The notes below the pieces were generated by a model, which had not been told where the DNA came from, did no database searches, and saw nothing but the letters and a program-made list of their open reading frames with translations. 64,000 bases of DNA from Escherichia phage MN05. The stretch lies in the sequence record NC_070987.1; one strand, given 5' to 3'. This document shows, one piece after another, positions 62,863 to 63,416 of the stretch. Numbering within the stretch: the first letter of the stretch is position 1; each line of letters opens with the position of its first letter. Made by a program: the position numbers and the translations under genes.

Positions 62863-63072
62863 TTAACTAAAGATACGAATGGCTACATCATGACCGATAT
62901 GACCGGGAACTTTATGCTGTTCTATTTTCAAACAGTGTTTACAGATACGAGATACACGAGATTCTTTTCTCTCGACCGGAGTGTCTTTAGCGTGGGTGAT
63001 ATGTAGGTTCTCAGTGATCACCCACTCGTGTTTACATCCAGAATCTTCGGGCTTTTTCTTACGAAAGAACAT
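62863..63072 (-). CDS. small zinc-ribbon-like protein (paralog family F)
   Basis: about 69 aa from MFFRKKK; CKHEW ... CKHC pattern; listed ORF starts further upstream. Confidence 0.4.
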   Translation of the reverse strand: MFFRKKKPEDSGCKHEWVITENLHITHAKDTPVERKESRVSRICKHCLKIEQHKVPGHIGHDVAIRIFS

Positions 63073-63080
63073 AACACCCC

Positions 63081-63245
63081 TTAGATCAGATCTGTTTTCT
63101 TGTGCAGACCACACACTTTACAGCGAGAGTAGATACGCAACCCTTGTCGCTCTCTGTCAGTAAGTTTATTTGTGATCGTCAGTTCATAAGTATGAAGATC
63201 TTCCCACTCATGGAAATGAAAGAAGCGTTTGAACCATTTGATCAT
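63081..63245 (-). CDS. small zinc-ribbon-like protein (paralog family F; hand-translated)
   Basis: 54 aa MIKWFKRFFHFHEWEDLHTYELTITNKLTDRERQGLRIYSRCKVCGLHKKTDLI; below the ORF-track size cutoff. Confidence 0.45.
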   Translation of the reverse strand: MIKWFKRFFHFHEWEDLHTYELTITNKLTDRERQGLRIYSRCKVCGLHKKTDLI

Positions 63246-63254
63246 AATGATTCC

Positions 63255-63416
63255 TTAGATTACATCACGATGACTAACATCACCACACACCTTACACTGA
63301 ATAACGTAACGTGTGCCCTTGTCATTATTCCCATCTGAATCTGTATAGACCAGAGGGCGAGTATTAATAATCTTCCAATCATGACAATGAAAGACACGCT
63401 TTAGCCACTTGAACAT
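63255..63416 (-). CDS. small zinc-ribbon-like protein (paralog family F)
   Basis: about 53 aa from internal Met MFKWLKRVFHCHDW...CKVCG; the upstream part of listed ORF 63255..63590 overlaps the next gene. Confidence 0.4.
   Translation of the reverse strand: MFKWLKRVFHCHDWKIINTRPLVYTDSDGNNDKGTRYVIQCKVCGDVSHRDVI

Follow-up and report, generated by a model that had tools for sequence, protein, structure and literature searches.

The right end of the window, the 64-kb stretch of DNA analysed here, carries three very small genes, c1, c2 and c3, packed back to back on the minus strand. The initial annotation described them as a recent tandem triplication of one metal-binding mini-protein gene. The locus raises two questions: how the three genes are related to one another, and what their products might be and do. 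Many inhibitors of core bacterial machines and many anti-defence factors are found among the small early proteins of phages, most of which are uncharacterised. For a pair of PHROG clusters that were already catalogued, we add a compact signature, a predicted fold, a wide and apparently phage-only distribution and a probable history of cassette exchange.

Three genes in the early arm of a Kuravirus

The genes, their Shine-Dalgarno sites and the features directly downstream are as follows.

63422..63425, minus strand: Shine-Dalgarno site of c1 (GAGG), read from the sequence; overlaps the TGA stop of the upstream gene 63424..63675
63255..63416, minus strand: c1, 53 aa, read from the sequence; begins MFKWLKRVFHCHDW, ends QCKVCGDVSHRDVI, full protein MFKWLKRVFHCHDWKIINTRPLVYTDSDGNNDKGTRYVIQCKVCGDVSHRDVI; N-terminal amphipathic helix MFKWLKRVF (predicted), putative ligands H10-x-H12 followed by D-W, then C41-K-V-C44-G
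63252..63256, minus strand: Shine-Dalgarno site of c2 (AAGGA), read from the sequence; overlaps the TAA stop of c1
63081..63245, minus strand: c2, 54 aa; begins MIKWFKRFFHFHEWEDLH, ends RCKVCGLHKKTDLI, full protein MIKWFKRFFHFHEWEDLHTYELTITNKLTDRERQGLRIYSRCKVCGLHKKTDLI; motif H10-F-H12-E-W, then C42-K-V-C45-G
63077..63082, minus strand: Shine-Dalgarno site of c3 (AAGGGG), read from the sequence; overlaps the TAA stop of c2
62863..63072, minus strand: c3, 69 aa from its ATG; begins MFFRKKKPEDSGCKHEW, with ICKHCLK later, full protein MFFRKKKPEDSGCKHEWVITENLHITHAKDTPVERKESRVSRICKHCLKIEQHKVPGHIGHDVAIRIFS; basic N-terminus, C13-K-H15-E-W, then C44-K-H-C47, conserved E51-x-H53 and G57-H58, and a C-terminal helix (predicted)
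62778..62853: tRNA-Arg(UCU), directly downstream of c3
62459..62758: phage lipoprotein gene (PF24052), just downstream of the tRNA

The coordinates, frames and translations of the three genes were all reproduced on re-analysis. Each gene starts with ATG, 4–6 nt from its Shine-Dalgarno site, and the overlap of these sites with the preceding stop codons in c2 and c3 suggests coupled translation, so that c1–c3 may be translated as a unit. The three proteins have the pattern [H/C]-x-H-[D/E]-W ... C-K-x-C in common. A six-frame regular-expression scan of all 64 kb found c1, c2 and c3 to be the only open reading frames of the form H-x-W...C-x-x-C, and the family HMM matched no further member in the window. 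The mechanical ORF list represents the array poorly. The absence of c2 from that list had been put down to its length of less than 60 aa, which is correct for c2; c1 is also shorter than 60 aa and is listed only inside a spurious 111-aa, TTG-extended frame (63255..63590) that overlaps the upstream gene. The listed frame of c3 runs to a GTG at 63114 and would overlap c2; its orthologues are annotated with an ATG start, as are the annotated orthologues of c1 and c2.

These are very short reading frames, two of them under common gene-calling thresholds, and one could ask whether they are chance frames in non-coding sequence with coincidental motifs. The probability of this is close to nil. Each protein has a full-length PHROG match (E 1e-17 to 1e-36), each gene has a Shine-Dalgarno site, the AlphaFold models are confident, and 1,960 homologous clusters were found; the only RNA family in the region is the neighbouring tRNA. 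The pooled pN/pS of orthologues is 0.10 for c1, 0.26 for c2, 0.11 for c3 and 0.12 for the phi32_107 type described below. The chance-frame explanation is refuted by these findings, and c1, c2 and c3 are genuine genes whose orthologues are under purifying selection.

The window belongs to a Kuravirus, a phiEco32-like podophage, and c1–c3 lie at its right end in the leftward-transcribed early cluster. The region shares 92–97% identity with E. coli podophages of Kuravirus and related Gordonclarkvirinae, such as NJ01, CHD5UKE1, SGF2 and phiEco32. Except for the PF24052 lipoprotein, all neighbours of the array in the window fall in PHROGs labelled "unknown function". In phiEco32 only one gene, phi32_107, itself a family member, occupies the equivalent slot between phi32_108 and tRNA-Arg. 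The leftward right arm of phiEco32 was assigned to the early class by experiment and consists mostly of unknown genes, probably for host takeover (PMC8948821). The homology to phi32_107 and the published phiEco32 data support the earlier placement of the array in the early-gene arm, and suggest that c1–c3 would be transcribed by the host sigma-70 RNA polymerase, as is the phiEco32 leftward early cluster. Our scan for promoters and terminators in the 60–64 kb interval gave nothing above the shuffled expectation.

Relation of c1, c2 and c3

Both c1 and c2 match phrog_8294 over its full length (c1: E 8.1e-25, residues 1–53 on profile positions 1–56 of 56; c2: E 1.5e-17, residues 1–54 on positions 1–56 of 56), whereas c3 matches phrog_13426 (E 3.9e-36, residues 2–69 on positions 3–74 of 78). 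The two PHROGs are already catalogued under the label "unknown function", as automatic clusters without a described motif, fold or function, and the GenBank orthologues of c1–c3 are hypothetical proteins (for example phi32_107 in phiEco32, gp147–149 in CHD5UKE1 and gp108–110 in EcoN5).

The proposal of a duplicated family holds for c1 and c2, which belong to the same PHROG and align with each other in BLASTP at E 8e-13, with 39–40% amino-acid identity. Their age is another matter. Codon-aligned, the two genes are 54% identical at the nucleotide level, and by the Nei–Gojobori method pS is 0.64 and dS about 1.4, which is saturated. The synonymous saturation together with the 54% nucleotide identity indicates that the copies are old, not recent. 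Each of the two is moreover conserved separately, at 92–100%, across many phages. On this evidence we regard c1 and c2 as true, old paralogues. Three blocks of DNA are still alike between them in a register of 171–174 nt, namely the N-terminal coding block (72%), CKVCG (93%) and the 3' end together with the Shine-Dalgarno site there (86%), and the outer two were mapped as the repeats D1 and D3.

63360..63417: D1, first copy, 5' coding block of c1
63189..63246: D1, second copy, in c2; 72% identity, spacing 171 nt
63253..63266: junction repeat D3, copy 1, 3' end of c1 and adjoining Shine-Dalgarno site; GAT-x-T-x-ATCTAAGG on the minus strand
63079..63092: junction repeat D3, copy 2, 3' end of c2 and adjoining Shine-Dalgarno site; 174 nt from copy 1, 86% identity

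We read the D1 block as the DNA-level remnant of the c1/c2 duplication unit.

The position of c3 is less direct. BLASTP gives E 0.008 against c1 and 0.001 against c2, and in hhalign comparisons with the c1/c2 family the probability was 57% (E 1e-4) when the alignments were small and dropped to 23% (E 9e-4) when they were deeper. A family-A HMM built without c3 picks it out at E 8.4e-5 among 2,807 six-frame reading frames, where the next non-member has an E of about 0.09. The order of predicted strands is the same in the AlphaFold models of c1 and c3. The other members of phrog_13426 come from 140–150 kb Vequintavirinae (such as Cronobacter phages CR3, CR8 and CR9, Pectobacterium phage POP15 and Escherichia phage W70), and both tblastn and alignment bore out these relatives. 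What links the two PHROGs is thus only a common predicted topology and marginal profile similarity; c3 has the same predicted fold as c1 and c2, and distant homology is possible.

A variable slot in related phages

HMM mapping of nine relatives placed the following gene arrangements in the slot.

c1-c2-c3: the window, CHD5UKE1 and EcoN5
c1-c3: NJ01
48-aa c1 variant-c2-c3: ECBP2 and NC-B
phi32_107-type-c2-c3: EK010
c2-c3: SU7
phi32_107-type only: phiEco32

The arrangement differs even within one species. CHD5UKE1, of the species Kuravirus SU10, has three genes, and SU10 itself has a single phi32_107-type copy. SGF2 and Bas91 are further phages with three genes. In the phage database, c1-type genes at 90% identity or more occur in 33 records, c2-type genes at 80% or more in 32 and c3-type genes at 90% or more in 46; other Kuravirus-like records there have the phi32_107 type only. 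Scans of IMG/VR with c2 and with a Kuravirus-type alignment matched only NJ01 and ECBP2. In some relatives a homing endonuclease is inserted beside the slot.

In NJ01 the 3' end of c1, GATGTAATCTAAGG, is joined straight to the leader of c3, GGTGTTATG, and exactly one c2 unit is gone between the repeated ATCTAAGG motifs, a clean indel. The D3 repeat is likely to be the crossover site for the gain and loss of cassettes. Taken together, the array looks like a recombining cassette slot that holds one to three genes in close relatives, as opposed to a single local amplification. The mechanism that we propose is that recombination at the repeats in the gene ends moves old, separately conserved paralogues into and out of a single slot, and that such shuffling would leave phages with different combinations of the genes.

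The competing account, that of the initial annotation, has one gene triplicated locally and recently, with the copies diverging in place. It draws on the adjacency of c1–c3, their common strand and motifs, and the 171–174 nt repeat register kept between c1 and c2. The divergence data contradict it: the saturated dS of about 1.4 and the 54% nucleotide identity of c1 and c2 are those of old copies, and c3 falls in another PHROG, common to Vequintavirinae, with an hhalign value of only 23–57% against the c1/c2 family. Moreover, the same three distinct genes recur at 92–100% in many phages while other combinations of one to three genes occupy the slot elsewhere. We consider a recent triplication very improbable, and of the earlier description neither "recently" nor "triplication" is supported.

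Conserved signature and predicted fold

The alignment of c1, c2 and their relatives reduces to a compact signature. Only H12, C41, C44 and G45 are invariant among 34–43 relatives. In the wider set of 181–184 members, the first putative ligand, two positions before the invariant histidine, is H in 132 and C in 44 (H or C in 176/181), and the residue after H-x is aromatic (W in 159, Y in 18, F in 4), followed by [IV]-[IV]. A spacer of 23–34 aa separates the two knuckles. The second, C-x-x-C-G, is present in 180/181 members and is preceded by G-x-R-Y-[IV]-L-[Q/R], with R at C-5 in 91/181; it is followed by x-[IV]-K-[K/H]-[K/R]-D, with K at C+7 in 149/181 and K or R at +8 and +9. The N-terminal 9–13 residues are hydrophobic across the family, rich in L, I, F and W, and the median net charge of the family is +4 (c1 +3, c2 +4, c3 +5). 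The Bruynoghevirus members have G at the first-ligand position and a Cys five residues upstream.

AlphaFold models c1 (pLDDT 82.7) with a helix at residues 3–8 and strands at 14–25, 31–41 and 47–52, and c3 (pLDDT 81.1) with strands at 17–27, 35–44 and 50–56, a helix at 61–68 and a basic N-terminus of low confidence. The two models agree on the placing of the knuckles: [H/C]-x-H immediately precedes strand 1, and C-x-x-C separates strand 2 from strand 3. Two features of zinc ribbons are therefore seen: two knuckles, each with two conserved putative ligands, across the family, and, in the predicted structures, a three-stranded antiparallel sheet with a knuckle between strands 2 and 3. A third feature of zinc ribbons, a first knuckle formed by a C-x-x-C or C-x-x-H turn in a beta hairpin, is lacking; the first knuckle of this family is an [H/C]-x-H that directly follows the N-terminal helix or coil, and no hairpin is predicted before strand 1.

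The interchange of H and C at one position, with H, C and C invariant, is the behaviour expected of a tetrahedral zinc site. From conservation and the AlphaFold models, which carry no metal, we put the probability of a three-stranded zinc-ribbon fold with a metal site at about 85%. The product of each gene would be a zinc-ribbon mini-protein that folds by itself and probably binds one Zn(II) through four putative ligands, two from [H/C]-x-H and two from C-x-x-C-G; a presumably buried aromatic residue, W, follows the N-terminal knuckle, and the zinc would staple the N-terminal segment onto the three-stranded antiparallel sheet at the turn between strands 2 and 3. The earlier suggestion of metal-binding mini-proteins is thus probable, given putative ligands that are invariant in 34–43 relatives and a first ligand that switches between H and C. 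We class the predicted fold as a zinc ribbon with an atypical, His-containing first knuckle, outside any named family.

Comparison with known zinc-ribbon proteins

Classical zinc ribbons, such as the N-terminal domain of NrdR and the C-terminal domains of TFIIS and LEF-5, have a hairpin C-x-x-C as first knuckle, whereas the present family has [H/C]-x-H-x-W after a short hydrophobic helix, and its putative site is His2Cys2 or CysHisCys2 instead of the classical Cys4. NrdR combines its zinc ribbon with an ATP-cone; c1–c3 contain neither an ATP-cone nor any other domain. Structural comparison with such ribbons gave scores that were not significant.

Lar-type restriction-alleviation ribbons and the DUF1660-type "GH-x-W ... 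C-x-x-CG" prophage proteins are small zinc-binding ORFans of phage early regions. They resemble the present proteins in being phage-borne and 50–70 aa long, with an aromatic residue after the first-knuckle His and a C-x-x-C-G second knuckle. Pfam hmmscan returned no Lar-type or DUF1660-type match for the window proteins at E <= 10 or for 43 relatives at E <= 0.1, so membership of these families is not supported. Other searches were likewise negative. Pfam contained no family at the gathering threshold for c1, c2, c3 or the 43 relatives, and an NCBIfam scan of the three proteins and their relatives gave no match. A 43-sequence profile found nothing below E 0.02 in the PDB and hence no solved relative, and PADLOC yielded no match besides one chance-level Cas10 match at E 0.028. 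Membership of a named zinc-ribbon family (for example Baculo_LEF5_C/TFIIS-type, Zn_ribbon, DUF1660 or Lar) was rejected, as no score exceeded threshold. The family is absent from the curated domain databases Pfam and NCBIfam, and the result is best seen as a tidy annotation of hypothetical genes, of modest novelty and without a surprising mechanism.

A family spread across unrelated phages

A search for the family in other phages, as the initial annotation had recommended, showed it to be much larger than the Kuravirus genes. A word-indexed search returned 41 relatives. When 1.84 billion cluster representatives were searched exhaustively with HMMER, 1,960 passed E <= 1e-3 and 78 passed E <= 1e-10; the best 150 of the 1,960 clusters are mostly 47–60 aa long. 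Members occur in several unrelated phage groups, and the named ones, all in virulent phages, include Pseudomonas Bruynoghevirus, Pseudomonas phage ventosus, Synechococcus phages B3 and B23 and Acinetobacter phage ME3. The hosts across the family include Escherichia, Pseudomonas, Acinetobacter and Synechococcus. The copy in Bruynoghevirus TL has no annotation of its own and overlaps "gp08", an annotated gene in a different frame; that of LUZ24 is decayed and fused, as the N-terminal part of gp12, a protein that the LUZ24 ORFan screen does not mention. Members came from phage records and from viral or metagenomic contigs. No relative turned up in 185,579 bacterial and archaeal genomes, which were scanned twice by pattern, although divergent copies could escape such patterns; within the limits of the patterns, the c1/c2 family looks confined to phage sequences.

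In 31 other loci (17 from IMG/VR and 14 from metagenomes) the gene is single-copy and no clear tandem array was found, which makes the Kuravirus array unusual for the family. One other lineage encodes P0068, a 182-aa protein with three tandem domains. No conserved neighbouring gene was common to 24 loci from different phage lineages. Members of an Acinetobacter-phage subfamily carry a transmembrane extension, a conserved hydrophobic stretch of about 20 residues followed by basic residues.

Possible roles of the mini-ribbons

These proteins of 53–69 aa, about 6–8 kDa in mass, leave little room for catalysis, and we propose that c1–c3 are stoichiometric accessory binding proteins, made early in infection. 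Contact with the target would be made by the basic face that is conserved on strands 2 and 3, with R-Y ahead of the cysteine pair and [IV]-K-[K/H]-[K/R]-D behind it, in proteins with a charge of +3 to +5. The very different hosts, the want of a conserved partner gene and the varying copy number in near-identical phages together argue for an accessory role and a generic target. We hold the odds of such an early accessory binder to be about even. More tentatively, its most likely target would be nucleic acid or a conserved nucleic-acid-handling machine of the host, which we put at well below even odds. A basic surface together with expression early in infection would suit a protein or membrane target as well as nucleic acid, and the hydrophobic N-terminus and the subfamily with the transmembrane extension point away from nucleic acid and towards the membrane.

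A different explanation is that the slot is an anti-defence cassette whose products inhibit particular bacterial immune proteins, each paralogue directed against a different defence and the variability of the slot reflecting an arms race. The genes are indeed early genes in a variable region, their number differs within one species (three in CHD5UKE1, one family-A gene in SU10), a homing endonuclease has entered next to the slot in some relatives, and another phage lineage has the triple-domain fusion. Against this, the orthologues evolve slowly (92–100% identity, pN/pS 0.10–0.26), and the presence of the family in phages of unrelated hosts, cyanobacteria included, argues for a conserved target. 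No member appears in two accessory-gene screens, whose supplements contain none of these sequences, and there is no PADLOC similarity, though PADLOC collects defence and not anti-defence proteins. We consider an anti-defence cassette rather unlikely. A little less likely again is a membrane-proximal function, in which the hydrophobic or amphipathic N-terminus and the basic patch would anchor the ribbon at the cytoplasmic membrane, on its inner side, where it could act on a membrane protein and so affect, say, superinfection exclusion, transport or envelope stress. The L-, I-, F- and W-rich N-terminal 9–13 residues found family-wide, the high helical hydrophobic moment of the c1 and c2 N-termini (2.1–2.2), the extension of about 20 hydrophobic residues with its basic residues in the Acinetobacter-phage subfamily and the PF24052 lipoprotein gene just downstream of the tRNA would all suit such a function. 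Yet the N-terminal segment of c1 and c2 is too short to span a membrane and c3 has no such segment; in the c1 model the helix (residues 3–8) lies beside the small sheet and may be needed as a hydrophobic core, and the lipoprotein is not conserved as a neighbour outside this phage group. Compared with either alternative we favour the early accessory binder. The natural differences among Kuravirus phages in the paralogues that they carry provide ready-made controls for phenotype tests.

Two bolder proposals can be added to that of an accessory binder. The mini-ribbon might represent an unrecognised class of early effectors directed at a single target that all bacteria conserve, for instance RNA polymerase, the ribosome or the nucleoid. 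We think this improbable, though not negligibly so; if true, the Kuravirus array and the triple-domain fusion would be multivalent or combinatorial uses of the module. In c3, the additional invariant residues D30, E51, H53 and H58 could form a second metal site or an active site.

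Variant forms of the mini-ribbon in other phages

The family of c1 and c2, small predicted zinc-ribbon proteins encoded by adjacent minus-strand genes in the window, has relatives in other phages that depart in several ways from a short, separately annotated gene:

L003 3778-3939, Pseudomonas phage TL: family member, unannotated
L024 1501-2160, LUZ24: gp12, 219 aa, whose N-terminus is a family copy
L006 2450-2662, Acinetobacter phage ME3: member of the ME3 subfamily
L012 2917-3465, metagenomic contig: protein P0068, 182 aa

The TL member overlaps the annotated 'gp08' in another frame. 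The LUZ24 copy (…YYDLRRWSAA…) lacks the C-x-x-C motif, and the arrangement in gp12 suggests a frameshift or fusion, or an error of sequencing or annotation. The ME3 protein, which carries the GenBank label 'baculo_LEF5_C superfamily', forms a subfamily with P0021-P0023, P0028, P0033, P0034, and P0128, and we found that all of these proteins begin with a conserved hydrophobic stretch (IGLFIGFFFSLC...), which extends the N-terminus by about 20 residues and resembles a transmembrane anchor. P0068 contains the mini-ribbon domain three times in tandem with Pro-rich linkers between the copies, such that the domains are fused in one protein, whereas c1–c3 of the window are separate tandem genes.

Within the family of c3, the third gene of the window (62866-63072), alignment A6 showed that D30, R42, E51, H53, G57, and H58 are invariant or nearly so, in addition to the four putative zinc ligands. 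These residues could form a second metal site or a second binding site.

The c3 side of the variable slot

The site occupied by c1–c3, which holds one to three genes in relatives, is flanked by a tRNA gene:

62778-62853, minus strand: tRNA-Arg(UCU), directly downstream of c3
L002 3764-4210: 447-bp insertion between c3 and the tRNA
L018 1899-2207, NJ01: additional gene after c3
L019 2097-2366, ECBP2: additional gene between c3 and the tRNA

The 447-bp insertion separates c3 from the tRNA in CHD5UKE1, Bas91, TH43, KM01, and YW01; it begins with a duplicated 19-nt fragment of the tRNA 5' end (GCACCCTTAGCTCAATGGA) and is annotated as a homing endonuclease in Bas91. NJ01 and ECBP2 each have an additional gene of 90–100 aa past c3, indicating that the slot is variable on this side too. 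The annotation of the NJ01 stretch shows no tRNA. An Rfam 'Plastid-ycf2' match on the strand opposite the window tRNA (62780-62853, plus) scored 40 bits, below the gathering score of 65.7, and we rejected it as almost certainly an antisense-tRNA artefact.

Other small Cys-containing early ORFs

Two further minus-strand ORFs of the window encode small Cys-containing proteins:

61475-61690, minus strand: Cys-rich early ORF, 71 aa (...CPDCGCETW...CKTCGDQPCDQSC)
63896-64000, minus strand: partial ORF, cut by the window end (...VVRSCCVCGNDIFIKGKV)

The first matches phrog_13157 (function label: unknown) and is probably a second zinc-binding mini-protein of the early cluster, unrelated to c1–c3. The other, three genes upstream of c1, is a homologue of phiEco32 phi32_110 (phrog_18461) with a C-x-x-C-G motif; against the family HMM, the c1/c2 profile built without c3, it scored at chance level (E 0.12).
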